Assembly: GCA_963779975.1 (NCBI GenBank)
Contig: CAWAAL010000024.1
Location: 57,153-121,152, forward strand
Source: an uncultured Planctomycetia bacterium
GTDB taxonomy: Bacteria; Planctomycetota; Planctomycetia; Pirellulales; Thermoguttaceae
Length of the DNA: 64,000 nucleotides
Direction of reading: 5' to 3'
This document shows positions 10,249 to 38,522 of this stretch, one piece after another (positions within the stretch are counted from its first letter, which is position 1; each line of letters starts with the position of its first letter). Made by a program: the position numbers and the translations under genes. The notes below the pieces were generated by a model. The model made no database searches and was not told where the DNA came from. It was given only the letters and a program-made list of their open reading frames with translations.

Positions 10249-10396
10249 TTGCCTTTGCCTCATAGCGGCATACAATGATGGCAGAGTCGCGATACACTCG
10301 ATCGCGACTCTGCAACAAGAATGTCGGATGACTAGATAGAGAGCAACCCGGCCGTACGGGGAGGCTCGTTAGTGAGTAAGCCGACGTGGTCGAATA
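10249..10396 (+). ncRNA. GTCGGATGACTAG-box RNA module, copy 1 (3'-truncated)
   Basis: -35 TTGCCT 10249-10254, 16 nt, -10 TACAAT 10271-10276. 13-bp P1 hairpin 10281-10313; box 10323-10335. The terminator 5' arm breaks at 10396 into an antisense gene relic. Confidence 0.7.
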
Positions 10397-10819
10397 GTCG
10401 TACAGCTCGCGCAGTTGCGTTTCCGGCAGTTCGACGGGCGCCAAATACGGGAAGAGCATCATGTGCTCCCAAGGCATCCAGACCAGTGGAAACGACGGAC
10501 GGATTGGCGCACGAGTGAAGGCGAACGGGTTGACGCCGGACAAGGCAATCGTGGACTCGGCCGTGAGTATGAGTTCCGTGTAGGGTTGGCTGATCTCGAA
10601 TCGACTGGCCGAATTGCCAAAGACATCTTCGAATTCCATGATCGGGACGGCGGGAACAATCTGCAAGCGATAGTTCAAGACGCTCTGATGGACGTCATTG
10701 ATCGGCCGCAGGTGGACGCAATGCTTGCTGTGCTGAACGGGCTGATTGTAACCAAACCGGGTCGTGTGCTTGACAGTCAAGCGACGGCTGCCAATCGTGG
10801 ACGGGACGGGCATGGTCAT
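10397..10819 (-). pseudogene. transglutaminase N-terminal-domain (Bact_transglu_N-like) protein, 3'-truncated by module copy 1
   Basis: RLTVKHTTRFGYNQPVQHSKHCVHLRPIND...FEDVFGNSASRFEI fits the family. Similarity ends at ...LRELYDY, after which the ORF translates the module antisense. Confidence 0.6.
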
Positions 10820-10836
10820 GATGAGGGTCTGAACGG

Positions 10837-11241
10837 CTACTTCTTCTTAACGTCGCGGAGCATCGGCGACTCGGCCAGGGTGAAGAGAACGACCTCCTCG
10901 CCGGTGACGGTGCTAATGTCGTGGTGCATGCTCCGCACCTTGATGCCGGTGATCTCCTGGACCAGCGTTTCCAAGATCGGACGGGCCGTTTCGATCAGAT
11001 GCGTCCGCACTTGCTTGAGCAGGTCGCGCCCCTTCTCGGCAGAGAGCGACTTGACGAGTTGCTGCTCGGCGGCGGTCAAAACGCCTTGCAGGCGGACCAC
11101 GAGCAGATCGCCGAGCAGGTGCGCGTGAATATCCTTGGGTCCCCGGCCCATATAGTCCTGCTCGAAGCGTGTCACTGCTTCGCAGACGGCGGATTCGATC
11201 TCTCCGTGGGTTCTCATGGCAATTTCTCGCTGGGTTCTCAA
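10837..11241 (-). CDS. DUF2294 (MpsC-like) family protein, stand-alone
   Basis: IESAVCEAVTRFEQDYMGRGPKDIHAHLLGDLLVVRLQGVLTAAEQQLVKS...MHHDISTVTGEEVVLFTLAESPMLRDVKKK. Divergent from module copy 2. Confidence 0.8.
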   Translation of the reverse strand: MRTQREIAMRTHGEIESAVCEAVTRFEQDYMGRGPKDIHAHLLGDLLVVRLQGVLTAAEQQLVKSLSAEKGRDLLKQVRTHLIETARPILETLVQEITGIKVRSMHHDISTVTGEEVVLFTLAESPMLRDVKKK

Positions 11242-11344
11242 GAAAGTGGATTATAGCAGATGAACGAAGTTGAGGAAAGCGGTCGAGTAACGCCCTTGAA
11301 CCAGTGGAAGGTCGATCGCCCCGGCGTTCTTGCCAGTCGGGTTA

Positions 11345-11530
11345 TAGCCAGTCGGCAAGGGATCGCTAAAATATAGATGTAACCGCTCCAAAGAGCTTGA
11401 ATGCTCGGATTACGATGAATGTTTGTCGGATGACTAGATGAAATACAACCCGGCCTTGCCGGGGGGTTCGTTGAAGAGTAAGCCGACGTGGCCGAATACC
11501 TGCGGGTGTTCCGCCACGTCGGCTTTTTTG
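11345..11530 (+). ncRNA. GTCGGATGACTAG-box RNA module, copy 2
   Basis: Divergent promoter region (TAGCCA, 16 nt, TAAAAT 11367-11372). Box 11425-11437; full terminator; T6 11524-11529. 75 nt to ATG 11605. Confidence 0.7.
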
Positions 11531-11604
11531 TTTCCGTGGTGCAAGACGGTCGGAATCCATTCACGGAAGGCTACTTCTCGGCCCAAGCATTGGAGGATAG
11601 GATC

Positions 11605-11883
11605 ATGTTGTTCTTGGCGCAATCACTACTCACGATGGCGGGCTTTGAGTACGACGAAATCGACGAAACCTGGGTAGCGCGAATGCCGTTGCGTCCTCTT
11701 GTGGCGGTCGAATGCGACGAGGATCGAGCTTACGTCCGGGAGGCGCTGAGGGAGGTCCAAGCGAGTCTTGACGCTATCGGCTGCGCCTACGACAACTACT
11801 TCGTGGTCAACGGCCGCTTCGTCTCCGTCCCAGGGCCTAGCGCCCGTGCGGCTACGGGTCTGGACGAACAGGATGACGGTTAA
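11605..11883 (+). CDS. hypothetical protein
   Basis: ATG 11605 follows RBS GGAGGA (MLFLAQSLLTMAGFEYDEIDETWVARMPL...). No family recognised. Confidence 0.4.
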   Translation: MLFLAQSLLTMAGFEYDEIDETWVARMPLRPLVAVECDEDRAYVREALREVQASLDAIGCAYDNYFVVNGRFVSVPGPSARAATGLDEQDDG

Positions 11884-12071
11884 AGTCGTCCCCATCCTGT
11901 GCAGGGCAGGATCGGATCGAGCCCGCTCAGCCAATGTCTCGTCAATCTGATGGATCATCCGGCAGGATCGGTCCATCAGGTCCCTCGCCTCCTGTTCATT
12001 GATCTTCAGGTTCCACTTCACGTCGTTGAGCCGCAGGTTACCACACAACTGAAGACCGTAATCGTGCGCGC

Positions 12072-12585: not shown

Positions 12586-12672
12586 CTACTTCTTCTTTAC
12601 GTCGCGGAGAATGAGCGACTCGGCGCGGGTGAAGAGAACGACCTCCTCGCCGGTGACGGTGCTGATGTCGTT
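12586..12672 (-). pseudogene. DUF2294 gene relic (last 28 codons + stop)
   Basis: The reverse strand reads NDISTVTGEEVVLFTRAESLILRDVKKK-stop. It lies 22 nt left of the copy 3 promoter. Confidence 0.7.
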
Positions 12673-12694
12673 TGAAAGAAAGCCAAAAGCTCTA

Positions 12695-12880
12695 TTGCCT
12701 TCGCCGCGTAGCGGCGTATGATAGTTGTATTGGGAGAATCGCGGCGCACTTGATCGCGACCTTTCAACGCAATTGTCGGATGACTAGATAGAGAGCAACC
12801 TGGATGTGCCAGGGGGCTCGTTGAAGAGTAAGCCGACGTGGTCGAATGCCTTCGGGTGTTCCGCCACGTCGGCTTTTTTC
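12695..12880 (+). ncRNA. GTCGGATGACTAG-box RNA module, copy 3
   Basis: TTGCCT 12695-12700, 16 nt, TATGAT 12717-12722. Box 12775-12787; P2 variant CCTGG/CCAGG; T6 12874-12879. 74 nt to ATG 12954. Confidence 0.75.
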
Positions 12881-12953
12881 GTTTTCGGTGTTGCGGGAAC
12901 AGTCGCAACGACCGAGCATGGTCCTTGGACAATCTCAAAAAGGGAGAGTTATC

Positions 12954-13028: not shown

Positions 13029-13075
13029 GCGTTCACGAAAGCAAGAACGAATCACAATTCACAAAGGATACTATC

Positions 13076-14764
13076 ATGACCGTACGTCACATTTGCCCAT
13101 GGTGCAGAGTCGCCGCACTGGCAACCCTGGGCGCAATAGTTGGCTTGCACAAGGCTACCGCCGTACCGCCGGGCCCGACGGATGCCGCGGATGGGATACA
13201 AGTGCTCACGCGCGGGCCGGTGCATGAGGCCTTCGCGGAAACGGTGACCTTCGATCCGCAACCGGGCATCGTGGCGCCGAAAGCGCCGCCGGCCGCCATC
13301 GAAGAACTTCCGCCGGACCAGAAACCGGAGGGGGCCAACATCGCCTGGATCCCCGGCTACTGGGCCTGGGACGACGAACGAAGCGACTTCCTTTGGGTCA
13401 GCGGCATCTGGCGCGACCTTCCGCCGAGCCGCCAATGGGTGCCCGGTTATTGGGACCAGTCCGGGCAAGGCTACCAATGGACTTCCGGGTACTGGGCGGA
13501 TGCCCAGGCGAGTAACGTGCAATATTTGCCCGAACCGCCTGTGACCGCCGAAGCCGGTCCCAACATTCCGTCGCCTTCGCCGGACGACACTTGGCTGCCG
13601 GGAAGTTGGCTGTGGCAGCAAAACCGCTATGCTTGGCGTCCCGGTCTCTGGGCCACCGCACATCCGGATTGGGAGTGGGTTCCCGCCCATTACCTATGGG
13701 CTCATCGCGGCTATGTTTTTGTCGACGGCTACTGGGATTACTCCATCGGCCGCCGCGGCGTACTGTTTGCGCCAGTGTATTTCAGTGCGGGCATGTATAC
13801 GCAGCCCCGTTTCTCCTATTCGCCCGCGACGGTGATCGATCTGGATGTTTTCACCAACTGTCTGTTCTTGAGGCCGCAATATCAACACTACTATTTCGGC
13901 GACTACTACGCCGACAATTATCAAGCAGCGGGGTTCTACCCGTCGTATTCGTACAACTCCGGCCGCCATGGCTACGATCCGATTTTCACCCACGAGCGCT
14001 GGCAGCATCGCCAGGACGGACAGTGGGAGCGTCGCATTGCGGCCGACTTCCAGAACCGCCGCGATCACGCGGATGCCCGACCGCCGCGGACGTTGGCGGC
14101 GCAAACAGCATTCAGGGCCGGCGAGGCGACGTCCGGAAAGAGGAGTCCCGTGCTGGCCGTGCCGTTCTCCCAATTCACGAAGAGTCAGAATAGTCCGCTG
14201 CGATTCCAGCCGGTCGATTCGTTGGAGCGACAAAAGCTGGTTCAGCACGTGCAAGCGGTGCAACGATTCCGCGAGCAGCGGCAGAAACTGGAGAACCAAG
14301 CAGCGGCGCCCTCAGCCGCCTCAGCGGCGAGACAATTCGCGCCGGCCAACGGGAGACTTCCCACCTCTCCGATCGCGACGAGGTCAAACACGGAACTCGG
14401 CAAGGATCACGTTCCACCCCAGATGCATGTAGCTCCCAAGCCGGATCTCACGGTCGAGGCCAAGCCGAGAGCGACTCCATCGCTGGAGAAACCGCAGCAA
14501 CGCACCGTGAACCGGCTGCCGCTCGATACGCCGAAACCTGAACCCCGGGCCGAACGGCCGGCACCGAAAGCGGAACCCCGGGTCGAACGGCCGGCACCGA
14601 AAGCGGAACCCCCGGTCGAACGGCCGGCACCGAAACCTGAACCCCAGGTCGAACGCCCAGCGCCGAAACCTGAACCCCAGGTCGAACGCCCAGCGCCGAA
14701 ACCGCCGGCAGAGCGACCGGCAGCGGGACCGAACCGAAATGGACAAAAGGAAAAGGGTAAATAG
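13076..14764 (+). CDS. secreted YXWGXW-repeat protein with Pro/Lys/Glu-rich repeat tail
   Basis: ATG 13076 with a signal-like N-terminus. Repeated GYWxW/WxPGxW aromatics (WIPGYWAWDD, WVPGYWDQSG, WTSGYWAD, WLPGSWLWQ). The tail is (PKxEPxVERPA)n. Confidence 0.6.
   Translation: MTVRHICPWCRVAALATLGAIVGLHKATAVPPGPTDAADGIQVLTRGPVHEAFAETVTFDPQPGIVAPKAPPAAIEELPPDQKPEGANIAWIPGYWAWDDERSDFLWVSGIWRDLPPSRQWVPGYWDQSGQGYQWTSGYWADAQASNVQYLPEPPVTAEAGPNIPSPSPDDTWLPGSWLWQQNRYAWRPGLWATAHPDWEWVPAHYLWAHRGYVFVDGYWDYSIGRRGVLFAPVYFSAGMYTQPRFSYSPATVIDLDVFTNCLFLRPQYQHYYFGDYYADNYQAAGFYPSYSYNSGRHGYDPIFTHERWQHRQDGQWERRIAADFQNRRDHADARPPRTLAAQTAFRAGEATSGKRSPVLAVPFSQFTKSQNSPLRFQPVDSLERQKLVQHVQAVQRFREQRQKLENQAAAPSAASAARQFAPANGRLPTSPIATRSNTELGKDHVPPQMHVAPKPDLTVEAKPRATPSLEKPQQRTVNRLPLDTPKPEPRAERPAPKAEPRVERPAPKAEPPVERPAPKPEPQVERPAPKPEPQVERPAPKPPAERPAAGPNRNGQKEKGK
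14531..14722 (+). repeat. 33-bp tandem repeat x ~5.8 (codes PKAEPRVERPA units)
   Basis: Units at 14531, 14564, 14597, 14630 and 14663, plus a partial unit at 14696, read directly from the sequence. Confidence 0.85.
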
Positions 14765-17763: not shown

Positions 17764-17801
17764 CGGCCTGCCGGGACCGACTGGCAGTGGTCCATCTCCG
17801 C

Positions 17802-17918
17802 TTCCTTGCCGGCGCAACCATCTTGGACGGCAGAGCCTTGGCGATAAATGGCGCGGTAACACTCGATGACAACACGATCACCGCGCCAAGTTCGGTTCCA
17901 GAACCCGTATCCCTAAGC
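17802..17918 (+). pseudogene. relic of a DUF3494 (ice-binding-like) protein C-terminus with start of a PEP-CTERM motif
   Basis: FLAGATILDGRALAINGAVTLDDNTITAPSSVPEPVSLS parallels ATILNGRALAQTGAVTMDTNTIS of the 18149 gene. It is cut at the -35 of module copy 4 and has no 5' part. Confidence 0.55.
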
Positions 17919-17922
17919 CCCA

Positions 17923-18105
17923 TTGCCTTTGCCCTTTGGCGGCGTAAAATGTGAGTGTTGGAAGAGTCGCATGGCAGATCGCGCTGCTCCAACGTAATTG
18001 TCGGATGACTAGAAAGAGGGCAACCCGGCCCTGCCGGGGGGCTCGTTAGCGAGTAAGCCGACGTGGTCGAATACCTCCGGGTGTTCCGCCACGTCGGCTT
18101 TTTTC
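17923..18105 (+). ncRNA. GTCGGATGACTAG-box RNA module, copy 4
   Basis: TTGCCT 17923-17928, 16 nt, TAAAAT 17945-17950. Box 18000-18012; T6 18099-18104. 44 nt to ATG 18149. Confidence 0.75.
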
Positions 18106-18148
18106 GTGCTTGGTTGCGCATCACAGTCACTTCACACGGAGACCCACG

Positions 18149-20779
18149 ATGTTCTGCCCGAGTTTCGCTCCCCTGTTCGGAAATTCCTGGTCTCGCAAGC
18201 GCACCCGCCGGACGCCGGTTGCGAAACGCCTCACTCGGCCGCTGTCGCTGCTTCGCCTGGAATACCTGGAAGATCGCCGAATGCTCACGAGTATTCTGGG
18301 CTCGGCGGGGAGTTTCGCGGTTCTGGGCGCCTCGACGGTGACCAATACCGGCCCGACCACCATCACCGGAAATCTGGGTGTGTACGCGGGTAGTTCGATC
18401 ACGGGCCTGGGGAGCATCACGATCACGGGAACGGTACACCAAACGGATGCGGTCGCGCAGTTGGCGCAGGCCGATAACACCACCGCGTACAATGGTCTGG
18501 CGAACATGCCGTTCAACAGCGACTTGACGGGCGAGGATCTGGGTGGACTCACGCTCGTGTCGGGCGTCTATCATTTTGACTCGGCGGCCCAGTTGACGGG
18601 AACACTCACGCTCAACGCCCAGGGCAACAACAATGCGTTCTGGGTTTTCCAGATAGGGAGCGGGCTGACGACCGCCAGCAACTCGGCGGTTCAGGTGATC
18701 AATTTCGGTTCGAATGGCGGTTCCGATGACGGCGTGTTCTGGCAGGTCGGCAGTTCCGCCACGCTCGGCACCGCCACTTCGTTCGAAGGGAATATTCTCG
18801 CGCTGGCGAGCATCACCCTCAACACCACCGCAACCATTCTGAACGGCAGGGCCTTGGCGCAAACCGGCGCGGTGACGATGGATACCAACACCATCAGTAA
18901 CGTCTGCCCGCTGGGCGGCCCCGGTAACGGCGGCCCCGGCTACAGCGGCGGCCTTGAGTTCAATCCCATTGGCAAAGTCGTGCCCGTTACCCCGGGCGTC
19001 ATCCCGCCAACCGGGCCAGGCGTCATCGGCGGCATGAAGTTCGACGACCTGAACGGGAGTGGGGTGCAGAATGCCGCCGATCCGGGCCTGGCGGGGTGGA
19101 CGGTTTACGTAGACTACAACGACAACGGCGTGTTCGACAGCGCCACGGAGCCGTCGGCAGTGACGGGCCCGGGGGGAACGTATACGATCACGGGCGTGAC
19201 GCCGGGCACCTGGAAGGTGCGGGAAGTCGGCCAGACAGGCTGGACGACCTCGCTTCCTGCGACAAGCGACGTCTACGGCGCCTACCAGCTAGTCACCGTG
19301 CCGGCGAACGGGTCGTTGGTAGGGGTCGAATTCGGCAATTATGAGCAGACCTCGATCCACGGCTACAAGTTCAACGACCTGAACGGCAACGGCGTGGACA
19401 ACAGCGAGCCGCGGCTTGCCGGCTGGACGATCGTGCTGGTCGGCACGACCGGCGCGGGCACTGCGGTCTCGACCACCACGACGACGGGAGCCGACGGCCA
19501 GTATTCGTTCACCGGCCTGGCGCCGGGAACCTACACCGTGAGCGAGCAGAACCAGACCGGCTGGACGCAATTGGCCGGCGGGGCGACGTTCACGCTCACC
19601 AGCGGCGAAGAGGCGGTGGCCTATACCGGTGAGGCGGGCACGCTGTTGCCCGGTCAGGCCGAGGTGCTCACTGCCGGGCTGGCCTTCGGCAACCATCATC
19701 GTAATGTGATCGTCATCGCGCAGGCCAAGAGTCCGAACACGCCGCAATTGGTCCGAGTGATCGACGAGGGGAGCGGGGCCGTGTTGTCGCAGTTCGCACC
19801 GTACGGCAAAACCTTCCAGGGCGGCATTCGGATCGCCACCGGCGATCTCATCGGCAATGGCGCCGACGAGATCGTTACGGCGCCCGGATGGAGCACGGTT
19901 GCGGTCGTCAAGGTGTACAGCCAGACGGGCGTTCTGCTGACGTCCTTCGATCCGTACGGCCCGACGTTCACGGGCGGCGTCCAGGTGGCGATCGCCGACG
20001 TCGATGGCGACGGGTTGAACGACATCATCACGGTTCCCAGCTACGGGCCTGCCGAGATGAAGGTGTTCCGGAACCTGGGCGTCGTGGGTGGAGTGCCCAC
20101 GTTCAATGCATCGCTGCCCTACAGGGAATTCCTCGCCTTTCCGTCGTCGTTCATCGGCGGCGCGGTGGTTACCGCGGCCGACATGGGAAGCACCCCGCTG
20201 GCAAACGGACCGTTCGTCCCCGGGCTGCTGGACGGGAAGGCGGAAATCGTCGTCGGGAGCGGCGCCGGCATGAAGACCACGGTGAAGGTGTTCGACGTTA
20301 GCCGCATGACCACACTCATGCCCAACAGTGTGGCCGCGGCCGTTGCGAGTTTCACTCCTTTCAGCACAGCCACTTTCACTTATAAAGGGGGGGTGTCGCT
20401 CAGCGTGGCGAGGATCAGCGCCAGTCTCACCCCGGACATCATCGTGGGGGCCGGCGTCGCCGGCAATTCCCTGGTGGACGTTTGGGCCTGGAACACTCCT
20501 TCCCCCACGTTGTCCAGTTTATCGGCCAATGGCATGGGCTTTGCCGCGTTCACCGGTCCGAGTCAAACCGCGCCGGTTGAGGTAGCGGCAATGGACACTG
20601 CCGGTAACGGCATCGCGGATACGATTATTGCCGTGCAGGGACCTGGTGGGACCACGGGCCAGATCCGCGCGTTCAAGATTACCAGCGTCTCGCCGCTCCA
20701 GGTTTCGCCACCCACGACAGTCCCCGGCAGCTATCTGCAACCCTATTTCATCGATCAGGTTTTCGCGGCATACGTGTGA
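18149..20779 (+). CDS. large secreted surface protein: DUF3494 ice-binding-like domain + 2 SdrD-B/Cna-B-like domains + FG-GAP/VCBS-like region
   Basis: ATG 18149. N-terminal LRLEYLEDRRMLTS leader, then ILGSAGSFAVLGASTVTNTGPTTITGNLGV..., GxKFxDLNGxGV repeats, and DVDGDGLNDIIT-type repeats. Confidence 0.7.
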   Translation: MFCPSFAPLFGNSWSRKRTRRTPVAKRLTRPLSLLRLEYLEDRRMLTSILGSAGSFAVLGASTVTNTGPTTITGNLGVYAGSSITGLGSITITGTVHQTDAVAQLAQADNTTAYNGLANMPFNSDLTGEDLGGLTLVSGVYHFDSAAQLTGTLTLNAQGNNNAFWVFQIGSGLTTASNSAVQVINFGSNGGSDDGVFWQVGSSATLGTATSFEGNILALASITLNTTATILNGRALAQTGAVTMDTNTISNVCPLGGPGNGGPGYSGGLEFNPIGKVVPVTPGVIPPTGPGVIGGMKFDDLNGSGVQNAADPGLAGWTVYVDYNDNGVFDSATEPSAVTGPGGTYTITGVTPGTWKVREVGQTGWTTSLPATSDVYGAYQLVTVPANGSLVGVEFGNYEQTSIHGYKFNDLNGNGVDNSEPRLAGWTIVLVGTTGAGTAVSTTTTTGADGQYSFTGLAPGTYTVSEQNQTGWTQLAGGATFTLTSGEEAVAYTGEAGTLLPGQAEVLTAGLAFGNHHRNVIVIAQAKSPNTPQLVRVIDEGSGAVLSQFAPYGKTFQGGIRIATGDLIGNGADEIVTAPGWSTVAVVKVYSQTGVLLTSFDPYGPTFTGGVQVAIADVDGDGLNDIITVPSYGPAEMKVFRNLGVVGGVPTFNASLPYREFLAFPSSFIGGAVVTAADMGSTPLANGPFVPGLLDGKAEIVVGSGAGMKTTVKVFDVSRMTTLMPNSVAAAVASFTPFSTATFTYKGGVSLSVARISASLTPDIIVGAGVAGNSLVDVWAWNTPSPTLSSLSANGMGFAAFTGPSQTAPVEVAAMDTAGNGIADTIIAVQGPGGTTGQIRAFKITSVSPLQVSPPTTVPGSYLQPYFIDQVFAAYV

Positions 20780-22455: not shown

Positions 22456-22543
22456 CTACTACTTCTTTACGTCGCGGAGAATGGGCGACTCGGCGCGGGT
22501 GAAGAAGAACGACCTCCTCGCCGGTGACGGTGCTGATGTCATT
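22456..22543 (-). pseudogene. DUF2294 gene relic (frameshifted 3' end)
   Basis: The reverse strand reads NDISTVTGEEVVL, then is out of frame through one extra T relative to relic 12586-12672. It lies 22 nt left of the copy 5 promoter. Confidence 0.65.
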
Positions 22544-22565
22544 TGAAAGAAGGCCAATAGCCCTA

Positions 22566-22748
22566 TTGCCTTTACCCTTTGGCGGCGTACAATGTGACTG
22601 TTGGAAGAGTCGCATCGCAGATCGTGCTGCTCCAACGAAGTTGTCGGATGACTAGAAAGAGGGCAACCCGGCCCTGCCGGGGGGCTCGTTGACGAGTAAG
22701 CCGACGTGGTCGAATACCTCCGGGTGTTCCGCCACGTCGGCTTTTTTC
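22566..22748 (+). ncRNA. GTCGGATGACTAG-box RNA module, copy 5
   Basis: TTGCCT 22566-22571, 16 nt, TACAAT 22588-22593. Box 22643-22655; T6 22742-22747. 30 nt to ATG 22778. Confidence 0.75.
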
Positions 22749-22777
22749 ATTTTCTGCCAGGTTCGGAGTACCCTCCC

Positions 22778-23791
22778 ATGTCGATCTTACCACACTTTCA
22801 CCAACCCCTGCAGACCGCGACAAAACAGCAGATTTTCCAGCAACATCGCCATGGCGACTCGGCGGAGTCGCTGGCCCGGCGTTTTTGTCGGTCCTGCACC
22901 CGCATTTACGGCATCATCAAGGAGATCCGGGCCGCACGGATCATGGAACTGCCGCTGGACTCCATGGGCAACGAGCAGTTTGCCCGCCTGTGCTCGGAGA
23001 AGAAGGAACGCGAGATATTACAGCCACCGCCGGAAGGCGATCTGGCGGCGAAGAAGTCGCGCGTGCCCGCCGGCATGCCCGCGTATCTGGCCAACCTGTA
23101 CGACGTGCCCCTGCTGACGCACGAGGAGGAGGTCCATCTCTTTCGGAAGATGAACTATCTCAAGTTCAAGGCGAGCGGGCTCCGCGACGCCCTCGACGTG
23201 AACCGGCCCAAGAGTTGCCTGATGGACCAGATCGAGGATCTGTACGACGAATCGGTCGCAGTCCAGAATCAGATCATCCGCGCCAACCTGAGGTTGGTGG
23301 TCGGGATTGCCAAGCGGTACGTCGGTCCGGCGGAAGACTTCTTCGAACTGGTCAGCGACGGGAACATGTCGTTGATCCGCGCCGTGCAGAAGTTCGATGT
23401 TTCGCGGGGCAACAGGTTCAGTACGTACGCAACTTGGGCGATCATGAAGAATTTCGCCCGCACGATCTCCGACGTGCTCCGTCAGCGGGGCCGTTTTTGC
23501 ACGAACCACGCGGAAACGTTCGGCGGCGCCGAGGATGACCGCACGGACCAGTACGAGCAGGCGTCGGCCCAAATCCAGCGGGAATCGCAAGTCGAGGGGA
23601 TCCTCGAGCGACTCGACGAGCGGGAGCGGCAGATTGTCACGAGCCGTTTCGGCCTGGCGCGCGGCCAGGAACCGCTGACCTTGAAGCAGGTCGGGGCTGC
23701 GATCGGCGTAACCAAAGAGCGGGTCCGTCAGATCCAGTGCCGGGCGATGAGCAAATTGAGAACGGCTGCCGAGGAGGACGGAATCGAGTGA
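22778..23791 (+). CDS. alternative sigma-70 family factor (regions 2-4, long N-terminal extension)
   Basis: ATG 22778. [72 protein letters not shown]...TLKQVGAAIGVTKERVRQIQ. Confidence 0.8.
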   Translation: MSILPHFHQPLQTATKQQIFQQHRHGDSAESLARRFCRSCTRIYGIIKEIRAARIMELPLDSMGNEQFARLCSEKKEREILQPPPEGDLAAKKSRVPAGMPAYLANLYDVPLLTHEEEVHLFRKMNYLKFKASGLRDALDVNRPKSCLMDQIEDLYDESVAVQNQIIRANLRLVVGIAKRYVGPAEDFFELVSDGNMSLIRAVQKFDVSRGNRFSTYATWAIMKNFARTISDVLRQRGRFCTNHAETFGGAEDDRTDQYEQASAQIQRESQVEGILERLDERERQIVTSRFGLARGQEPLTLKQVGAAIGVTKERVRQIQCRAMSKLRTAAEEDGIE

Positions 23792-23811
23792 TTCCAAGGG
23801 AAAGGGACAAC

Positions 23812-26743: not shown

Positions 26744-29150
26744 ATGACGACAAAAGCCCTTTCCCCCGAACTGCTCCAGAAGATGGACGCTTATTGGCGC
26801 GCCGCGAACTATCTCTCGGTCGGCCAGATTTACCTTTATGACAATCCCCTCCTGAAGCGGCCGCTTGCGCTTGCCGACGTGAAGCACATGCTGCTGGGAC
26901 ACTGGGGCACGACCCCCGGACAGAACTTCATCTACGCACACCTGAACCGGGTCATCAAGAAATACGACCTCGACATGATTTATGTCTCCGGTCCGGGGCA
27001 CGGCGGCCCGGCCGTCGTGGCCAACACGTACCTCGAAGGCACGTACAGCGAGGTCTATCCCGACATCAGCCAGGACGAGGCCGGGCTGCGGAAGCTCTTT
27101 CTGCAGTTCTCGTTTCCCGGAGGAATTCCCAGCCACGCATCGCCCGAGTGCCCGGGCTCGATCCACGAGGGCGGCGAGTTGGGCTATTCGCTCAGCCATT
27201 CGTTCGGAGCGGTGTTCGACAATCCCGGTCTCATCGTCGCCTGCGTCGTCGGCGACGGCGAGGCGGAGACGGGACCGCTGGCCACGGCGTGGCATTCGAA
27301 CAAGTTCCTCGATCCGGCCACCGATGGCGCGGTGCTGCCGATCTTGCATCTCAACGGCTACAAGATTTCCAACCCGACCATCCTGGCCCGCATCGAGCAC
27401 GAGGAATTGGAGCAGTTGCTCCGCGGCTACGGGTGGACGCCCTACTTCGTCGAGGGGCACGAGCCCGAACTGATGCACGAGGCGATGGCCGCGACGCTCG
27501 ACGCGGCGGTGGAGCAGATCCGACAAGTCCAGGACAACGCCCGCCGACCATCGGTAGATGGCGCCCCCTACAGCCTGACGCGTCCGCGCTGGCCGATGAT
27601 CGTGCTGAACTCGCCCAAGGGCTGGACGGGGCCGAAGATGATCGATGGATTGCAAGTGGAAGGCACCTTCCGGGCGCACCAGGTGCCGCTCTCCGATCCG
27701 GCGACGCATCCGGAACACCTCAAGCTGCTGGAAGACTGGCTGAGGAGCTACCGGCCGGAGGAACTCTTCGACGATTCAGGCCGCCTGAAAGCGGAGTTGG
27801 CCGAACTGGCGCCCCAAGGCCAGCGGCGCATGGGCGCCAATCCCCACGCCAACGGCGGCCTGCTGCTCCGCGACCTGCGGATGCCGGACTTCCGCGACTA
27901 CGCGGAAGCCGTACCCTCGCCGGGCGCGCGCGGCATCGGCGAACGTCCACGTGCTCGGGCCTTTCCTCCGCGACGTGGCGAAGCTCAACGCCGAGCCGAC
28001 CATGGGTACACGGTGCCCGAACTTTCGCGTCTTCGGCCCTGACGAGACGCTCTCCAACGGCCTGGAGGCCCTTTTCGAAGTGACGCAGCGCCAATGGGAC
28101 GCCGCAACCGTGCCCAACGACGAATTCCTCGCGCCCGCGGGGCGGGTGATGGAAATGCTCAGCGAACATCAATGCGAGGGCTGGCTCGAAGGCTACCTGC
28201 TCACCGGGCGGCATGGACTCTTCAACTGCTACGAGGCCTTCATCCACATCGTCGATTCGATGTTCAACCAGCACGCCAAGTGGCTGAAGGTCACGTCGCG
28301 CTTGCCGTGGCGGCGGAAGATCGCCTCGCTGAACTACCTGCTGGCCTCGCACGTCTGGCGCCAGGACCACAACGGTTTCACGCACCAGGACCCCGGTTTC
28401 ATCGATCACGTCCTGAACAAGAAGGCCGAAATCGTCCGCGTTTACCTCCCCCCGGACGCCAACTGCCTGCTCTCCGTGATCGACCACTGCCTCCGCAGCC
28501 GGCATTACGTGAACGTCGTGGTCGCGGGCAAACACCCCGCGCCGCAGTGGCTGACGATGGACGCCGCCGTCAAGCACTGCACCGAGGGCATCGGCATCTG
28601 GCCGTGGGCGAGCAACGACCAGGGCGTCGCCCCCGACGTGGTCATGGCCTGCTGCGGCGACGTGCCCACGCTGGAGACGCTCGCCGCCGTCTCGATCCTC
28701 CGCGAGCATCTGCCGGAGTTGAAGATCCGGGTGCTCAACGTCGTCGACCTCATGCGGCTGCAACCGCAAAGCGAACACCCGCACGGGCTGAGCGACATGG
28801 ATTTCGACGAGCTTTTCACCAAGGACAAGCCGGTCATCTTCGCGTTCCATGCCTACCCATGGCTGGTCCACCGGCTGACCTACCGCCGCACCAACCACCG
28901 CAACATCCACGTCCGCGGCTACAAGGAAGAGGGCACCATCACCACGCCCTTCGACATGACGGTGCTGAACGATCTGGACCGCTTCCATCTTGTGATGGAC
29001 GTCATCGACCGCCTGCCGCAGACCGGCGACAAGGGCATCTATCTCAAGCAGCAACTCAAGGACAAGCTCATCGAGCACAAGCAATACATCGAGAAGTACG
29101 GCCAGGACCTGCCGGAAATCCGCAACTGGAAGTGGGACAACCTCAAATGA
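26744..29150 (+). CDS. xfp: phosphoketolase (xylulose-5-P/fructose-6-P), 1 frameshift in this sequence
   Basis: Track ORFs 26744..28042 and 27951..29150 together cover a full ~800-aa Xfp ([62 protein letters not shown]). The shift is near 27941-27946. Confidence 0.9.
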
Positions 29151-30247: not shown

Positions 30248-30349
30248 CTATTTCTTCTTCGCGTCGCGGAGCATCGGCGACTCGGCCAGGGTGAAAAGAA
30301 CGACCTCCTCGCCAGTGAGGGTGCTTATGTCATGGCGCATGCTCAACGC
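30248..30349 (-). pseudogene. DUF2294 gene relic (last 33 codons + stop)
   Basis: The reverse strand reads LSMRHDISTLTGEEVVLFTLAESPMLRDAKKK-stop. It lies 47 nt left of the copy 6 promoter. Confidence 0.7.
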
Positions 30350-30396
30350 AATCCAGGCAATCATCATATCAAGGTTAGAAAAAGGGCAATAGTCGC

Positions 30397-30581
30397 TTGC
30401 CTTTTTTGCGTGGCTGGTTACAATGACCGGTGGGAAGAGTCGCGGCGGACTAGACTGTGGCTTTTCACTGGAATTGTCGGATGACTAGATAGAGGGCAAC
30501 CCGGCCGTGCCGGGGGGCTCGGTAGCGAGTAAGCCGACGTGGTCGAATACCTGCGGGTATTCCGTCACGTCGGCTTTTTTC
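30397..30581 (+). ncRNA. GTCGGATGACTAG-box RNA module, copy 6
   Basis: TTGCCT 30397-30402, 16 nt, TACAAT 30419-30424. Box 30476-30488; T6 30575-30580. 56 nt to ATG 30637. Confidence 0.75.
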
Positions 30582-30636
30582 GTTTTCTGCCAGTTTTGGT
30601 CCAAGCCCCACTTGTTACCCAATGAGGAACTGAATC

Positions 30637-32579: not shown

Positions 32580-32582
32580 CAT

Positions 32583-34654: not shown

Positions 34655-37153
34655 ATGTTGAAACCAAATGCAGATAAGCCGGGATCGAAGGACGATCTAA
34701 AATCCCTGCCGCTGGCGGAGGTGGAGAAACGATTGGGCTCGTCGCCGGACGGCCTCAGTCAAGCCGAGGCGCAGAAACGGCTGACCCAATATGGGCCTAA
34801 CGAGATTGAAGAAAAGAAGACCAATCCGCTCCTGAAATTCCTCGCCTATTTTTGGGGTCCCATCCCGTGGATGATCGAAGTGGCGGTGATTCTGTCGGGT
34901 GCGGTCCAGCACTGGCCGGATTTCTTCATCATCCTCCTCTTGCTGGTGACCAACGCCGTGGTCGGATTCTGGGAAGAACACCAGGCGGGCAACGCCATCG
35001 CCGCCCTGAAGGCCAAGCTGGCGATCAAGGCGAGGGTGAAACGTGATGGGAAGTGGGTCAACCCGGCGGCGCGTGAGTTGGTGCCGGGCGACGTCATCCG
35101 CATGCGCCTGGGCGACATCGTGCCGGCCGATGCACGGCTGTTGGACGGCGACCCGGTGGAGGTGGATCAATCCGCGCTGACGGGAGAGTCGTTGCCCGCC
35201 GAGCGCAAACCGGGCGAGGCGGTGTTTTCCGGTTCGATCATTCGTCAGGGTGAAATCGGCGCACTGGTCTACGCCACGGGGGCAAACACCTACTTCGGCA
35301 AGACGGCGCAACTGGTGCAGGAGGCACACACCGTCAGCCATTTTCAAAAGGCGGTCTTGAAGATCGGCGATTACCTGATCATCCTCGCGGCGGCTCTGGT
35401 GGCAGTGATCGTCGTGGTTGCGCTGTTCCGCGGCGATCCGATGCTTTACGCAGAGCCCGGCCGGGAGCCCGTACTGTTGTTTGCGCTGGTCCTCACGGTG
35501 GCCGCGATTCCCGTGGCAATGCCCACGGTGTTGTCGGTGACGATGGCGGTCGGCGCCCGCCTGCTCGCCAGGAAAAAGGCGATCGTGAGCAAGCTGGTGG
35601 CCATCGAGGAACTGGCGGGCGTGGACGTGCTGTGCGCGGACAAGACCGGCACCCTGACCCAGAACAAGCTGACGCTGGGCGATCCGTTCAGCGTACACAA
35701 CGTCGCCGCCGATCAAGTGATCCTGGATGGCGCGCTGGCGTCGCGTGCGGATAATAACGACACCATCGATCTGGCCGTCCTGGGCGGACTGAAAGACAAG
35801 GATTCGTTAAAGGCTTATGAGGTGCTTCATTTCCAGCCGTTCGACCCGGTGCATAAACGCACCGAGGCCACCGTCAAAGCCAAAGACGGAAAGACGTTCA
35901 AGGTGACGAAGGGTGCGCCGCAGGTGATTTTGGCGTTGTCGGCCAATGCCGGGCAGGTGAAGCCCGCCGTCGAGAAAGCCGTCAATGAATTTGCGGCGCG
36001 CGGCTTCCGTTCGTTGGGCGTGGCGCGGGCCGAGGGCGACGGGCCATGGCAGTTTGTCGGCGTGTTGCCCTTGTTCGATCCCCCGCGGGAAGATGCCAAG
36101 GCAACCATCGCGACCGCGCTGGCCATGGGCGTAAAGGTCAAGATGGTTACGGGGGACGCGCTGGCCATCGCCAAGGAAACCGCCAAGAAGCTGGACATGG
36201 GCACGAATATCCTCGATGCCGGCGGCCTGGGCGACACGAAGCATCACGAGACGGCGCAGTCGGCGGAGGCAATTGAAAAAGCGGACGGCTTCGCCCAGGT
36301 GTTCCCCGAACACAAGTTCCACATCGTGGACGTCCTGCAGCAACGCGGCCACATCGTCGGCATGACGGGCGACGGGGTGAACGATGCCCCCGCGCTGAAG
36401 AAGGCCGACTGCGGCATCGCCGTTTCCGACGCGACGGACGCGGCCCGCGCGGCGGCGGCCATCGTGCTGCTGACGCCGGGCCTATCGGTGATTATCGACG
36501 CCATCAAGGAGAGCCGGAAGATCTTCCAGCGGATGAACAGCTACGCGATCTACCGCATCGCCGAGACGCTGCGCGTGCTGTTCTTCATGACGCTGGCGAT
36601 CCTGGTGTTCAACTTCTATCCGTTGACGGCGGTGATGATCGTGATGCTGGCGTTGCTCAACGACGGGGCGATCCTCTCCATTGCCTATGACAACGTTCAT
36701 TACAAGGACAAGCCCGAGGCCTGGAACATGCACATGGTGCTGGGGGTCGCCACGGTGCTGGGCCTGATCGGGGTCGTCTCCGCGTTCCTTCTGTTTTATC
36801 TTGGCGAGCGTGTCTTCGGCCTCGACCGCGCGCACATCCAGACGCTGATGTACTTGAAGCTCTCCGTGGCGGGACATCTGACGATCTTCCTGACGCGGAC
36901 GCGCGGCCCGTTCTGGTCGATCCGCCCCGCGCGAATTCTATGGGTGGCCGTGCTCGGCACGCAAATCGTGGCGACGTTGATCGCCGTTTATGGACTGTTC
37001 ATGACGCCCCTTGGCTGGGGTTGGGCGATGTTTGTTTGGGGTTATGCCCTGGCTTGGTTCCTCGTGAATGACCGCCTGAAATTGCTCGCGTATCGGATTT
37101 TCGATCCAACTACCTTGCCCCTATTGGCCAAGAAACACTGCCATGCCGGATGA
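34655..37153 (+). CDS. P3A-type (plasma-membrane H+-ATPase-like) P-type ATPase
   Basis: ATG 34655 follows RBS AGGAGGA. LSQAEAQKRLTQYGPNEIEEKKTNPLLKFLAYFWGPIPWMIE, LTGESLP, CADKTGTLTQNKL, MTGDGVNDAPALKKADCGIAV. Confidence 0.85.
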   Translation: MLKPNADKPGSKDDLKSLPLAEVEKRLGSSPDGLSQAEAQKRLTQYGPNEIEEKKTNPLLKFLAYFWGPIPWMIEVAVILSGAVQHWPDFFIILLLLVTNAVVGFWEEHQAGNAIAALKAKLAIKARVKRDGKWVNPAARELVPGDVIRMRLGDIVPADARLLDGDPVEVDQSALTGESLPAERKPGEAVFSGSIIRQGEIGALVYATGANTYFGKTAQLVQEAHTVSHFQKAVLKIGDYLIILAAALVAVIVVVALFRGDPMLYAEPGREPVLLFALVLTVAAIPVAMPTVLSVTMAVGARLLARKKAIVSKLVAIEELAGVDVLCADKTGTLTQNKLTLGDPFSVHNVAADQVILDGALASRADNNDTIDLAVLGGLKDKDSLKAYEVLHFQPFDPVHKRTEATVKAKDGKTFKVTKGAPQVILALSANAGQVKPAVEKAVNEFAARGFRSLGVARAEGDGPWQFVGVLPLFDPPREDAKATIATALAMGVKVKMVTGDALAIAKETAKKLDMGTNILDAGGLGDTKHHETAQSAEAIEKADGFAQVFPEHKFHIVDVLQQRGHIVGMTGDGVNDAPALKKADCGIAVSDATDAARAAAAIVLLTPGLSVIIDAIKESRKIFQRMNSYAIYRIAETLRVLFFMTLAILVFNFYPLTAVMIVMLALLNDGAILSIAYDNVHYKDKPEAWNMHMVLGVATVLGLIGVVSAFLLFYLGERVFGLDRAHIQTLMYLKLSVAGHLTIFLTRTRGPFWSIRPARILWVAVLGTQIVATLIAVYGLFMTPLGWGWAMFVWGYALAWFLVNDRLKLLAYRIFDPTTLPLLAKKHCHAG

Positions 37154-38045
37154 AGTCACGTTTGATCATGAAGCAGGCGTCTTGCGGGTCTTGCAGACCA
37201 AGAGCGAGACGAAGGCATTCTACGACAAGATCGCCATGGTCTATGATCTCTTGGCGGAGCATTCCGAGCGGCCCGTGCGTGAAACCGGGCTGCGGCTGCT
37301 CGCTGCTGCCCCAGGTGAGCGCGTTCTGGAAATCGGCTTCGGGACCGGCCATATCTTGGCCGAACTTGCCCGTGCCGTCGGGCCGACGGGAAAGGTCTTC
37401 GGCATCGACATCTCGGAGAACATGTTGGACCACGCAAGAGGCGTTCTGAGCAACAAGGGCCTCATTGACCGCGTTTCCCTTGATTGCGGCGATGCCCAAA
37501 GCCTCCCCTACGGTGACGACTCGCTGGACGGGATATTCATGTGCTTCACCCTGGAACTGTTCGACACGCCGGACATTCCCAAGGTGCTGGCAGAGTGCAA
37601 GCGGGTCCTGCGGCCGCGCGGGCGCATCGTCGTCGTGGCCATTTCCAAGGAGTGTAAAGACGGCAAAGAAGGCAAGGACGGGTTCATCATTCACGCCTTC
37701 GAGTGGACACATCGCCACTTTCCCAATTTGATGGACTGCCGGCCGATCTATGTCCGCCGAGCGCTGGAGGCGGCGGGCTTTGCCATCGAGGACTCGCGGA
37801 CGGAATCTATGTGGATTCCCGTGGAGATTGTGCTGGGCAGGAGGGCCGTCTTCTTGCCTTTGCCCCGAAGCTGGACTCCATGGGCGACGAGCAAATTGCG
37901 AACGGCTGCCGAGGAGGACGGAATCGAGTGCTTTCCAGCGGTGGAGGCGAAGGACCACGAGTCGAGCAGCGAGGCCAGAACATGCCCCCACAGCCCCATG
38001 CCCATAAACATTTCACCGGCACGGCAACCGTCCGCGACATCGTGA
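37143..38045 (+). CDS. class I SAM-dependent methyltransferase; ORF tail reads through unrelated relic sequence
   Basis: VLEIGFGTGHILAELA (motif I), VFGIDISENML, GIFMCFTLELF, LRPRGRIVVV. Family-like sequence ends about 37850. Confidence 0.7.
   Translation: MPDEVTFDHEAGVLRVLQTKSETKAFYDKIAMVYDLLAEHSERPVRETGLRLLAAAPGERVLEIGFGTGHILAELARAVGPTGKVFGIDISENMLDHARGVLSNKGLIDRVSLDCGDAQSLPYGDDSLDGIFMCFTLELFDTPDIPKVLAECKRVLRPRGRIVVVAISKECKDGKEGKDGFIIHAFEWTHRHFPNLMDCRPIYVRRALEAAGFAIEDSRTESMWIPVEIVLGRRAVFLPLPRSWTPWATSKLRTAAEEDGIECFPAVEAKDHESSSEARTCPHSPMPINISPARQPSATS
37854..37930 (+). pseudogene. collapsed relic of a module + alternative-sigma paralog
   Basis: TTGCCTTTGCCC (module -35 region), then GCTGGACTCCATGGGCGACGAGCA (matches 22954-22977, 23/24) joined to AATTGCGAACGGCTGCCGAGGAGGACGGAATCGAGTG (matches 23754-23790, 36/37). 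Confidence 0.55.
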
Positions 38046-38308
38046 TCGGCATGTCCGATGGTTTGACCGTTCCCTTCGCCCTCGCAGCTGGGCTTTCGGG
38101 GGCCGTGGACGCGACGAGCATCGTGATTACGGCCGGGCCGGCCGAGGTTGCGGCTGGTTCGATTGCGATGGGCCTGGGCGGCTACTTGGCCGCAAGGACC
38201 GATTCCGAACATTACGTCACGGAGCGGGCTACCGAAAAAGAGGCAACGATCGAGATGCCGGAACCGGAGGCCGAAGAAGTGGCCTCAGTATTCCGGCACT
38301 TATCTTAG
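37982..38308 (+). pseudogene. VIT1/CCC1 family iron/manganese transporter, 3'-truncated before module copy 7
   Basis: ATG 37982. VRDIVIGMSDGLTVPFALAAGLSGA...AGSIAMGLGGYLAARTDSEHY...EPEAEEVASVF, then stop. The C-terminal TM half of the family is missing. Confidence 0.6.
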
Positions 38309-38336
38309 CGAAGATGCTTGGCTAAAACCACGAGTA

Positions 38337-38522
38337 TTGCCTTTTCCCTTCGGCGGCGTACAATTTCAGTGTTGGAAGAGTTGCGGGGCACTTGTTCGCG
38401 GCTCTCCAGTGAAATTGTCGGATGACTAGATAGAGGGCAACCTGGCTGTGCCGGGGGGCTAGTTGAAGAGTAAGCCGACGTGGTCGAACACCTTAGGGTA
38501 TTCCGCCACGTCGGCTTTTTTG
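38337..38522 (+). ncRNA. GTCGGATGACTAG-box RNA module, copy 7
   Basis: TTGCCT 38337-38342, 16 nt, TACAAT 38359-38364. Box 38417-38429; T6 38516-38521. 84 nt to ATG 38606. Confidence 0.75.

Follow-up and report, generated by a model that had tools for sequence, protein, structure and literature searches.

The truncated genes beside the copies of a repeated module in this DNA are probably scars of deletion and of recombination between paralogues, left in tightly packed cassettes and filtered by selection on the leader that heads each cassette, with no mobile element involved. The window, i.e. the whole 64,000-nucleotide stretch that was analysed, carries a repeated unit of 190 bases that combines a promoter with a structured, terminator-containing leader. 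An A-rich zone lies upstream of its sigma-70-type promoter; a P1 hairpin follows, then the structured, conserved core, and an intrinsic terminator closes the unit. The covariance model R1 recovered 10 full copies with scores of 103-123 bits, and the truncated copy 1 as a match of 59 bits at 10315-10422. All 11 copies have the + orientation and fall within 10.3-48.3 kb, and each of the 10 intact ones stands directly upstream of a + strand gene. The copies, and one partial look-alike, are as follows.

10249..10396, + strand: copy 1, truncated and dead, with promoter, P1 hairpin, core and half of the terminator (self-BLAST, alignment and covariance model)
11332..11533, + strand: copy 2, a variant in its promoter region (alignment and covariance model; the L100 ortholog has the same downstream gene)
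12691..12883, + strand: copy 3 (self-BLAST, covariance model)
17916..18108, + strand: copy 4 (self-BLAST, covariance model)
22559..22751, + strand: copy 5, a mosaic (identity comparisons with copies 3 and 4)
30392..30584, + strand: copy 6 (covariance model; the L039 ortholog has the same downstream gene)
38333..38525, + strand: copy 7, its -35 at 38337, 12 nt past the native VIT1 stop (covariance model)
40254..40447, + strand: copy 8 (covariance model)
46673..46865, + strand: copy 9 (covariance model)
47382..47574, + strand: copy 10, its -35 8 nt past the stop of the upstream DUF1328 gene (covariance model; the L028 ortholog has the same downstream gene)
48133..48342, + strand: copy 11, heading a glycosyltransferase / desaturase / GH130 operon (covariance model; ortholog in L098)
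9048..9088, + strand: look-alike of the terminator hairpin only, without T run (24 bits, model positions 67-106; repeat family D5), between a histidine-kinase gene and the REC-DUF2294 gene

Many pairs of modules are 80-90% identical over 110-200 nt by self-BLAST. The genes downstream of them, as assigned with Pfam and NCBIfam, encode DUF3494, sigma factor, YflT-like, response regulator, SnoaL-like, Hsp20-like and glycosyltransferase proteins, and their coding sequences gave no mutual self-BLAST alignment, except for an 88-nt element common to copies 8 and 11. The upstream coding sequences are non-homologous for most module pairs; four copies (3, 5, 6 and 8) share upstream a 3' stump of a DUF2294 (MpsC-like) gene.

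The core of the leader was found in more than 118 loci of Pirellulales, Gemmataceae, Isosphaeraceae, Thermoguttaceae and Phycisphaerae, gathered with an exact pattern in which two sequence blocks were fixed, the invariance of those 26 bases being thus by construction. In a 133-sequence alignment, with the two blocks fixed by the search pattern, 24 of the 34 predicted pairs show compensatory double changes. The promoter and P1 consensus recur in other genomes among the relatives examined and, since core, promoter and P1 are conserved in relatives, the sharp edges of similarity between copies coincide with functional edges. A divergent DUF2294 gene is paired with the module core in 44 of 113 cores of other Planctomycetota. 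The nascent RNA is predicted to fold into a domain closed by GUCGG:CCGAC, while in the full transcript the terminator forms and takes CCGAC; terminator and closing helix are predicted to be mutually exclusive, the terminator being favoured by 5-10 kcal/mol in each of the 10 copies. Considering that the terminator captures CCGAC in the full transcript, we infer from these predicted folds that the leader would be a default-off attenuator, switched on by some ligand or protein.

In this respect the module resembles terminator/antiterminator leaders, with its position in the 5' UTR, a covarying structured domain and a closing helix that competes with an intrinsic terminator. Unlike them, it is present in multiple copies (10 intact in 38 kb), heads very diverse stress genes, frequently has a DUF2294 gene diverging from it, and lacks a match in Rfam: the whole window searched against Rfam 15 (4227 families) at gathering thresholds gave none, and copy 4 searched in E-value mode gave solely chance-level hairpin matches of 20 bits or less. 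The Rhodopirellula-1 motif (Weinberg et al. 2010) was considered as the identity of the leader and rejected, its sequence being different. Our literature search on DUF2294 and on planctomycete leader RNA returned nothing relevant, and we found no published description of a multi-copy promoter-plus-attenuator leader heading diverse stress genes across a phylum.

The initial annotation had described three borders of the module as cuts into unrelated genes. The truncated genes are real, but the first break lies inside a module and the third is not a cut by the module. The features at the first junction are the following.

10397..10819, - strand: transglutaminase-like stump, codons 1-141 of about 300 (Pfam Bact_transglu_N; intact orthologs at L100:3737-4639 and in L097)
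10837..11217, - strand: intact DUF2294/MpsC-like gene, divergent from copy 2 (Pfam MpsC, E 9e-36)

The fusion at 10396/10397 of a transglutaminase-N gene to the terminator of copy 1, with loss of the 3' part of the gene, was borne out by the intact orthologs in L100 and L097, which extend beyond this position, where the window turns into module sequence. The open reading frame from 10819 to 10127 (- strand) contains a complete Bact_transglu_N domain (Pfam, E 1e-19) and corresponds to residues 1-141 of the intact 300-aa L100 ortholog with 92% amino acid identity; the remainder of the gene is absent from the whole window. The break falls in the 5' arm of the upper terminator stem, inside copy 1, and is therefore no module border; copy 1 was destroyed as well. 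The joined sequences share only 2-3 nt. The block formed by the transglutaminase-like gene, the DUF2294 gene and copy 2 is also contiguous in L100. A degenerate 26-mer spanning the junction gave no match in metagenome contigs.

At the second junction, upstream of copy 4, a gene is truncated on both sides.

17778..17916, + strand: DUF3494/Ice_binding PEP-CTERM C-terminal relic (Pfam, self-comparison and phmmer homologs)

This relic lacks about 90% of the gene on its left side. It covers positions 183-208 of 208 of the Ice_binding profile (Pfam) and is 56% identical to the intact gene of the window at 18797-18898 (E 4e-6). In its homologs, collected by exhaustive phmmer search, the (V/I)PEP motif is followed by 14-20 hydrophobic residues and an RRR cluster. 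The relic keeps just VPEPVSLS, so the cut lies about 4 codons after VPEP; truncation after this motif, as initially annotated, is thus right, and the distance of 2 codons is not. Its in-frame tail, IAFALWRRKM followed by a stop, is encoded by the copy 4 promoter, and copy 5 encodes the identical peptide. A word-indexed protein search with the 48-aa relic returned no candidates, the NCBIfam PEP-CTERM model did not match it, and the relic is absent from the orthologous site in L098.

The third junction was said to be a VIT1/CCC1 gene cut by the module at copy 7.

37982..38325, + strand: VIT1/CCC1 pseudogene with codons 1 to about 108, a deletion, and then about 9 final codons ending in the native stop (Pfam; intact gene at L024:305-1009)

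The pseudogene is intact to about codon 105-108, with 89% amino acid identity to the 234-aa L024 ortholog, and matches positions 1-90 of 214 of the VIT1 profile (Pfam). However, the stretch 38294-38338 aligns with the native 3' end of the L024 gene, taking in its TAA stop (38323-38325) and some 12 nt of the 3' UTR. The native end thus precedes the module, and the lesion is an internal, frameshifting deletion of about 117 codons, in contradiction with a cut by copy 7.

Additionally, scars were found by self-BLAST, alignment and Pfam at other modules and away from any module.

12586..12671, - strand: DUF2294 3' stump, copy 3, 92.6% identical to the intact gene, with the same breakpoint as the copy 5 stump
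22456..22540, - strand: DUF2294 3' stump, copy 5 (self-BLAST and alignment)
30248..30372, - strand: DUF2294 3' stump, copy 6, with a differing breakpoint (self-BLAST and alignment)
40133..40235, - strand: DUF2294 3' stump, copy 8, degraded, with a third breakpoint (self-BLAST and alignment)
37882..37933, + strand: stump of a group-2-type sigma-factor gene, its last 50 nt or so, fused to a methyltransferase ORF (94% identical to 23742-23793)
39457..39717, + strand: MFS transporter fragment, with no adjacent module (Pfam profile positions 97-181 of 347, E 6e-6, below the gathering score)

The DUF2294 stumps have three distinct breakpoints, which nevertheless all fall in a zone of about 17 nt, 28-45 nt ahead of the -35. 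A rough estimate, with endpoints taken as even over a spacer of about 100 nt, gives a probability of about 0.003-0.02 for this clustering, which hints either at a hotspot in the AT-rich zone between back-to-back promoters or at one old scar that was spread by conversion and then eroded. The sigma-factor stump adjoins no module; in L024, VIT1 directly follows the sigma gene. Native stops and terminators survive in the stumps, ordered as expected. None of the nine junctions was spanned by an alignment in a BLAST comparison with 173 related loci. Since no junction was seen in these loci or, for the first one, in metagenome contigs, the polarity and the age of the events are ones that we infer. 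Separately, a frameshift at about 27951-28042 divides a phosphoketolase gene, which suggests sequence errors or decay.

The cassettes occupy a hypervariable island, whose left edge is the stop of the following gene.

9114..9974, + strand: REC-DUF2294 (MpsC-like) response-regulator gene (Pfam Response_reg and MpsC)

Synteny ends at 9974/9975 in the 94%-identical contigs L120 and L123 and in the 84-88%-identical L121, L122, L125, L127 and L146. To the right of 9975, the content is wholly different in the 94%-identical contigs, which are the closest relatives compared there. Pairs of module and downstream gene nevertheless recur with 82-87% nucleotide identity in L025, L039, L070, L028, L100, L122 and L098, while the order of the cassettes differs in every relative and their content varies too. 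In L098, a truncated promoter with half a P1 hairpin comes after the sigma gene, and the copy 11 ortholog stands next. The GC content is uniform across the window (0.57-0.64), and no tRNA was found in it.

Copy 5 is a mosaic. It is about 94.3-94.7% identical to copy 4 over exactly the module (190 nt; 17916-18105 versus 22559-22748), the flanks and downstream genes of the two being unrelated, whereas its left flank, made of the DUF2294 stump and the terminator of that gene, is 94.8% identical to the flank of copy 3, the modules of copies 3 and 5 being 84.5% identical. These identities point to recombination or gene conversion among the copies. In the L025 ortholog of the copy 5 (sigma) cassette, the DUF2294 gene is intact and the promoter form is different.

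The hallmarks of transposition are absent, as the initial annotation had stated. Searches for terminal inverted repeats gave just words of 5-7 nt, mostly between the A-rich zone and the T run and within the range of random pairs; the longest words common to both flanks, which would be target-site duplications, are 4-5 nt with a random mode of 5; and no transposase or integrase domain was detected in about 55 ORFs across the window. The same annotation took the borders as a sign that the module itself is mobile, which they do not show: the core is phylum-wide, module-gene pairs recur, and scars also occur away from modules. Its suggestion that the spread may be recombinational finds support in exchange among copies, in view of the copy 5 mosaic; capture of promoter cassettes is not supported, no de novo gain having been seen in the relatives compared, of which those covering the island are at most about 94% identical.

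We therefore favour deletion and paralogous recombination under selection as the probable origin of the stumps. A regulon of planctomycete stress genes would have the module as its conserved 5' control region; in this genome, the 10 intact leader-headed cassettes and one dead copy are arranged head to tail in the island that starts at 9975. Illegitimate deletions, with a microhomology of merely 2-4 nt, would leave the gene stumps, and homologous recombination or gene conversion would act between paralogous leaders and also between the DUF2294 genes that normally lie divergent upstream of them. Purely homologous crossover between leaders was rejected as the source of the stumps, because it puts junctions within the repeat and leaves the neighbours whole. 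The gap from an upstream stop to the next -35 is 8-12 nt in two cases in the window and roughly 35-90 nt in relatives, and with such tight packing any deletion that reaches the end of the upstream gene lands at the edge of a leader. With the leader presumably under strong purifying selection and neighbouring genes ending only tens of bases ahead of the -35, surviving endpoints would gather at the 5' edge of the leader. They would lie 12-45 nt upstream of the -35, or inside the leader, killing the copy, as in copy 1.

In bacterial pseudogene decay by deletion, junctions likewise have microhomology only, some deletions are internal and frameshifting, and native stops and terminators are kept. 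Unlike ordinary decay, the scars are here unusually dense, at least 9 in 30 kb, and lie within one island of paralogous, recombining cassettes.

Alternatively, the promoter-leader may have been captured by duplication within this lineage, a unit of 190 nt, or of about 350 nt with stump and module, being copied by recombination without transposase before unrelated genes, taking the place of the sequence there and truncating the neighbours. In the operational definition of putative mobile promoters (Matus-Garcia, Nijveen and van Passel 2012, PMC3488235), regions longer than 50 nt that are at least 80% identical stand before genes without homology to each other, and the module copies have both this upstream similarity and such non-homologous downstream genes. 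Riboswitches were found among such families, with recombination-mediated duplication proposed as one route of spread, and how riboswitch families grow or shrink was called unknown (PMC3488235). The near identity of copies 4 and 5 over exactly the module, the stump-plus-module unit of about 350 nt common to copies 3 and 5, the different form of the sigma cassette in L025 and the clustering of breakpoints at the left edge of the module all agree with such copying. Nevertheless, orthologous genes in several relatives already carry the leader and no de novo gain of a leader was seen, so gene conversion between pre-existing leaders suffices. Conservation of the module across genomes also accounts for the sharp edges, and one alleged border cut, in VIT1, is an internal deletion. 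The likeness to putative mobile promoters lies in the highly similar regions before non-homologous genes of one genome; unlike them, the repeat is a complete promoter with a structured attenuator, found phylum-wide, and its pairs with genes are shared with other genomes. The similarity is thus largely one of constraint and conversion, and we regard duplicative capture as rather unlikely.

A doubtful, more speculative reading is that the conserved leader serves, besides regulating, as a portable anchor for recombination, and that Planctomycetota maintain a stress regulon as an array of leader-headed cassettes, which are swapped, duplicated and deleted at or beside the leader. If true, the system would amount to an integron analogue that works without integrase, with the AT-rich zone of back-to-back promoters as a hotspot of breakage, and the divergently encoded DUF2294 protein, which is highly conserved, would be a component of that control system too. 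Integron arrays also consist of short cassettes in tandem and in the same orientation, with a repeated separator element and a content that varies among close relatives. In contrast to them, no integrase was found in the ORFs of the window, the repeat stands at the 5' end of the cassette and carries its own promoter, and the junctions are imprecise and leave gene stumps, which is a poor fit to site-specific recombination.

An improbable origin of the stumps is a horizontal flux of cassettes by homology-facilitated illegitimate recombination, in which DNA arriving from other planctomycetes would recombine within a leader as the homologous anchor and its far end would be joined illegitimately, truncating genes. 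The core is nearly identical across families and offers a potential anchor of about 110 nt, the content right of 9975 is wholly different even in the 94%-identical contigs, and the first junction combines a break within a leader with a truncated, foreign-looking block that is contiguous in L100. By this model, however, illegitimate junctions should fall where the insert ends away from its anchor, with no preference for the 5' edge of the leader. The uniform GC content, and the 80-90% identity of the cassette genes to the same relatives as the flanks, leave no foreign signature visible. Besides, these organisms are not known to undergo natural transformation.

Chimeric joins in a metagenome with many near-identical leader copies are very improbable as the cause of the junctions. 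Repeats such as the leader, 110-190 nt long and 85-97% identical, are well known to induce mis-joins, no junction was seen in any other assembly compared, as described above, and the phosphoketolase frameshift suggests errors or decay. However, mis-joins at repeats fall within the shared sequence, whereas 8 of the 9 junctions lie in unique sequence outside it and the sequences joined at the first share too little; the DUF2294-stump junction is present twice in the window, 5% diverged, and the order of native stops and terminators in the stumps is as expected. A MITE-like, non-autonomous element moved in trans by a transposase from another part of the genome is hardly credible: the many sharp-edged copies of about 190 nt agree with it, as do the 6-7 nt over which the A-rich left zone is weakly complementary to the T run of the terminator, and against it stand terminal inverted repeats and target-site duplications not above chance, the uniform orientation and placement of the copies, the conservation of sequence and structure across the phylum with compensatory changes, and a window without transposase.

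With deletion and paralogous recombination as the preferred origin, the border phenomenon is mostly ordinary, made of pseudogene scars and exchange between paralogues. For annotation, several ORFs of this region call for caution, being stumps or artefacts of read-through; one tail that resembles PEP-CTERM is in fact promoter sequence. The content of the island turns over faster than 6% sequence divergence, and the multi-copy leader system offers a natural case for studying how a regulon expands and shrinks.

The module is a repeated unit of ~190 nt made of five parts: an A-rich zone, a promoter with a -35 box (TTGCCTTT) and an extended -10 box (GGCGTACAAT), a variable yet recognisable hairpin (P1), a highly conserved core (GTCGGATGACTAGA ... 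CCGG hairpin ... GAGTAAG) and a strong intrinsic terminator (GCCGACGTGG ... CCACGTCGGC then T6). Using a covariance model trained on 133 examples, 10 full copies (103-123 bits) and one truncated copy (59 bits) were detected, all on the + strand between 10.3 and 48.3 kb, with none in the rest of the window. Each intact copy has a + strand gene behind it. Copies 1, 4 and 7, whose borders the initial annotation had read as signs of mobility or recombination of the module (junctions 1, 2 and 3), have their cores at 10321, 17998 and 38415. Core and terminator of the ten full copies are located as follows.

11417-11530, + strand, copy 2
12767-12880, + strand, copy 3
17992-18105, + strand, copy 4
22635-22748, + strand, copy 5
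30468-30581, + strand, copy 6
38409-38522, + strand, copy 7
40330-40444, + strand, copy 8
46749-46862, + strand, copy 9
47458-47571, + strand, copy 10
48222-48339, + strand, copy 11

A short form, with a TTGCAT...TATAAT promoter 8-12 nt 5' of the core and no P1 hairpin, occurs at related loci of other assemblies (L025:2760-2950; L070; L024:2330-2524; L100:7700-7888), with an intact DUF2294 gene upstream in three of the four (L025, L024, L070). A 41-nt look-alike of the terminator hairpin (9048-9088, 83-88% identical, without the T run) sits between the hybrid histidine-kinase gene and the REC-DUF2294 gene. Immediately 3' of the terminators of copies 8 and 11 there is an 88-nt element (40438-40525 and 48334-48421, 85% identical) with an internal inverted repeat of ~18 bp (AGAACGTTCGGAAGAAAT / ATTTCTTCCGAACGTTCT), which may be a second control site.

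The exact core pattern matched more than 118 loci in genome assemblies (L001-L118 among them), from Pirellulales, Gemmataceae, Isosphaeraceae, Thermoguttaceae, Phycisphaerae and others. Of the 34 pairs predicted, 24 show compensatory double changes in the 133-sequence alignment. Until the terminator's 3' strand has been transcribed, every window copy is predicted to fold into a domain closed by GUCGG:CCGAC, while in the full transcript the terminator, which captures CCGAC, is favoured by a predicted 5-10 kcal/mol; these two alternative predicted folds are arranged as in a default-off attenuator or riboswitch. No family of Rfam 15 matches the module, and no description of it was found in the searchable literature. 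Core and terminator form a structured leader RNA across Planctomycetota, a candidate new attenuator or riboswitch class. The genes behind the leaders are stress-related: group-2-type sigma factors, YflT-like, SPFH and Hsp20-like genes and a response regulator immediately behind, and PPK2, acetate kinase, phosphoketolase, P-type ATPase, glycosyltransferase, desaturase and GH130 further along the cassettes (leader plus the genes behind it).

At junction 1, a minus-strand ORF (10819 to 10127) encodes a complete Bact_transglu_N domain, and its residues 3-143 correspond to residues 1-141 of the intact 300-aa L100 ortholog (92% identity). The DNA of L100 (90% identical) and of the Gemmataceae locus L097 (80%) matches the window down to 10397; past this point both run on jointly into the remaining gene while the window turns into module sequence, and the missing part is absent from the whole window. 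The truncation of this transglutaminase-like gene is therefore real, as the initial annotation had stated for 10396/10397, but the break is not a module border, since it sits inside copy 1, in the 5' arm of the upper terminator stem, and copy 1 is destroyed as well. The two sides have only 2-3 nt in common. The deletion at junction 1 took away half the terminator, the gene that originally followed copy 1 and the convergent gene's 3' half. Copy 1 has kept its promoter and lost its terminator, so that its transcripts would run antisense via the transglutaminase stump into the intact DUF2294 gene (region 10249-11217 as a whole).

At junction 2, bases 17778-17916 code for the last part of a DUF3494/Ice_binding domain and, behind it, VPEPVSLS; this relic is 56% identical (E 4e-6) to the matching segment of the intact DUF3494 gene a short way downstream. 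Homologs from an exhaustive phmmer search extend beyond (V/I)PEP by 14-20 hydrophobic residues and a cluster of arginines; the relic's PEP-CTERM anchor is therefore truncated, although ~4 codons after VPEP and not 2 as first proposed. The in-frame tail IAFALWRRKM* comes from the module promoter (17917-17954), not from the relic gene, and the copy 5 promoter (22559-22594) encodes the near-identical IAFTLWRRTM. This tail is a coincidence that mimics a short PEP-CTERM, and thus an annotation trap. On the left, too, the relic is truncated, a few bases past the stop of the 660-aa sigma-70 gene. It is absent from the orthologous site in L098 (sigma gene 90% identical), where the module promoter comes straight after the stop.

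At junction 3, VIT1 agrees with the intact 234-aa L024 ortholog to about codon 108. From there, 45 nt (38294-38338) can be aligned to the native 3' terminus of the L024 gene, namely its last ~9 codons, the TAA stop (38323-38325) and ~12 nt past it. The proposed truncation is thus an internal, frameshifting deletion of ~117 codons and not a cut by the module, the -35 box of copy 7 starting 12 nt past the natural stop. Immediately 5' of VIT1, a stump of the last ~50 nt of a sigma-factor gene (37882-37933) is joined to the methyltransferase ORF. As L024 has the sigma gene followed by VIT1, which is the ancestral adjacency, the 450-nt piece is a remnant of another cassette, with one scar on its left side and one internal.

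Further scars were found. Upstream of copies 3, 5, 6 and 8 lie opposite-strand 3' stumps of a DUF2294/MpsC-like gene that keep the native stop. One breakpoint is common to copies 3 and 5, and copies 6 and 8 have two others; compared with intact arrangements in other genomes, all three fall 28-45 nt upstream of the -35 box, in an AT-rich zone holding an A tract and the apparent -10 box of the divergent DUF2294 promoter. This clustering, tighter than an even spread predicts, may reflect an AT-rich hotspot or an older scar spread by conversion and eroded. Of the 113 module cores from other genomes, 44 have a DUF2294 gene no more than 600 nt upstream, mostly ~200 nt away and always divergent; because of this recurrence, DUF2294 is the normal partner gene of the module and the four stumps are its remains. 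Its protein is extremely conserved (82-91% identity in the best 120 of at least 8000 homologs), and the left neighbour of the hypervariable island is itself a REC-DUF2294 response regulator, behind a hybrid histidine kinase. There is also an MFS fragment (39457-39717), and the phosphoketolase gene (26744-29150) is split by a frameshift into two frames (XFP_N in 26744-28042; XFP and XFP_C in 27951-29150), being either a genuine pseudogene or an assembly indel error. An ornithine cyclodeaminase-family ORF (53498-54241, minus strand) matches only profile positions 139-309 of 314; at the right end of the cassette array, it may be one more gene that has lost its 5' part. Three tandem repeat arrays are present: 33-nt repeats within the gene behind copy 3 (14498-14737), 72-nt leucine-rich-repeat units in an LRR histidine-kinase gene (45828-46466) and 21-nt repeats at 61.3 kb (61316-61398).

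In agreement with the initial annotation, neither terminal inverted repeats nor target-site duplications exceeded chance at the module copies, and no transposase, integrase or tRNA was found in the window. Module-gene pairs recur in relatives (sigma gene, L025; YflT-like gene, L039; response regulator, L070; Hsp20-like gene, L028; 92-aa gene, L100; gene after copy 3, L122; glycosyltransferase operon, L098), with a different cassette order in each. The promoter and P1 consensus is also found again in other genomes, so the sharp left edge of the similarity coincides with a functional edge. The borders do not demonstrate that the module is mobile.

The REC-DUF2294 stop (9975) is a sharp synteny break: the metagenome contigs L120 and L123, 94% identical in this gene, have nothing in common with the window past it, and in L123 the next 10 kb contain no match, modules included. 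In ~85%-identical contigs, the copy 3 ortholog follows ~55-90 nt past the stop, a place taken up in the window by 2.7 kb of other sequence. L098 carries a scar (6380-6813, minus strand) in which the promoter and half of the P1 hairpin are fused directly to the copy 11 ortholog, thereby joining the 660-aa sigma gene ortholog to the glycosyltransferase operon without the ~30 kb of cassettes of the window. No independent assembly confirmed a junction: none of the nine was found among 173 related loci, and the sequence across junction 1 had no match in metagenome contigs.

Copies 4 and 5 match at 94% over precisely the length of the module, and their flanks are unrelated. The left flank of copy 5 (DUF2294 terminator and stump) matches the left flank of copy 3 at 95%, the modules of copies 3 and 5 being only 84.5% identical. 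In L025, the cassette orthologous to that of copy 5 carries an intact DUF2294 gene and the short promoter form lacking P1. These mosaics are compatible with gene conversion or crossing-over, with one exchange point in the conserved core or terminator and the other in the conserved 3' end of DUF2294.

The stumps are therefore real, yet they do not demonstrate movement of the module. The most economical account is a leader-cassette array subject to illegitimate deletions and paralogous recombination. Old, tightly packed leader-headed cassettes would be kept by selection, with frequent illegitimate deletions, and paralogous recombination also at work, within the array. A deletion entering a leader would kill it, as in copy 1 and L098, while one halting short of the leader would survive, so that endpoints would pile up at the leader's 5' edge.
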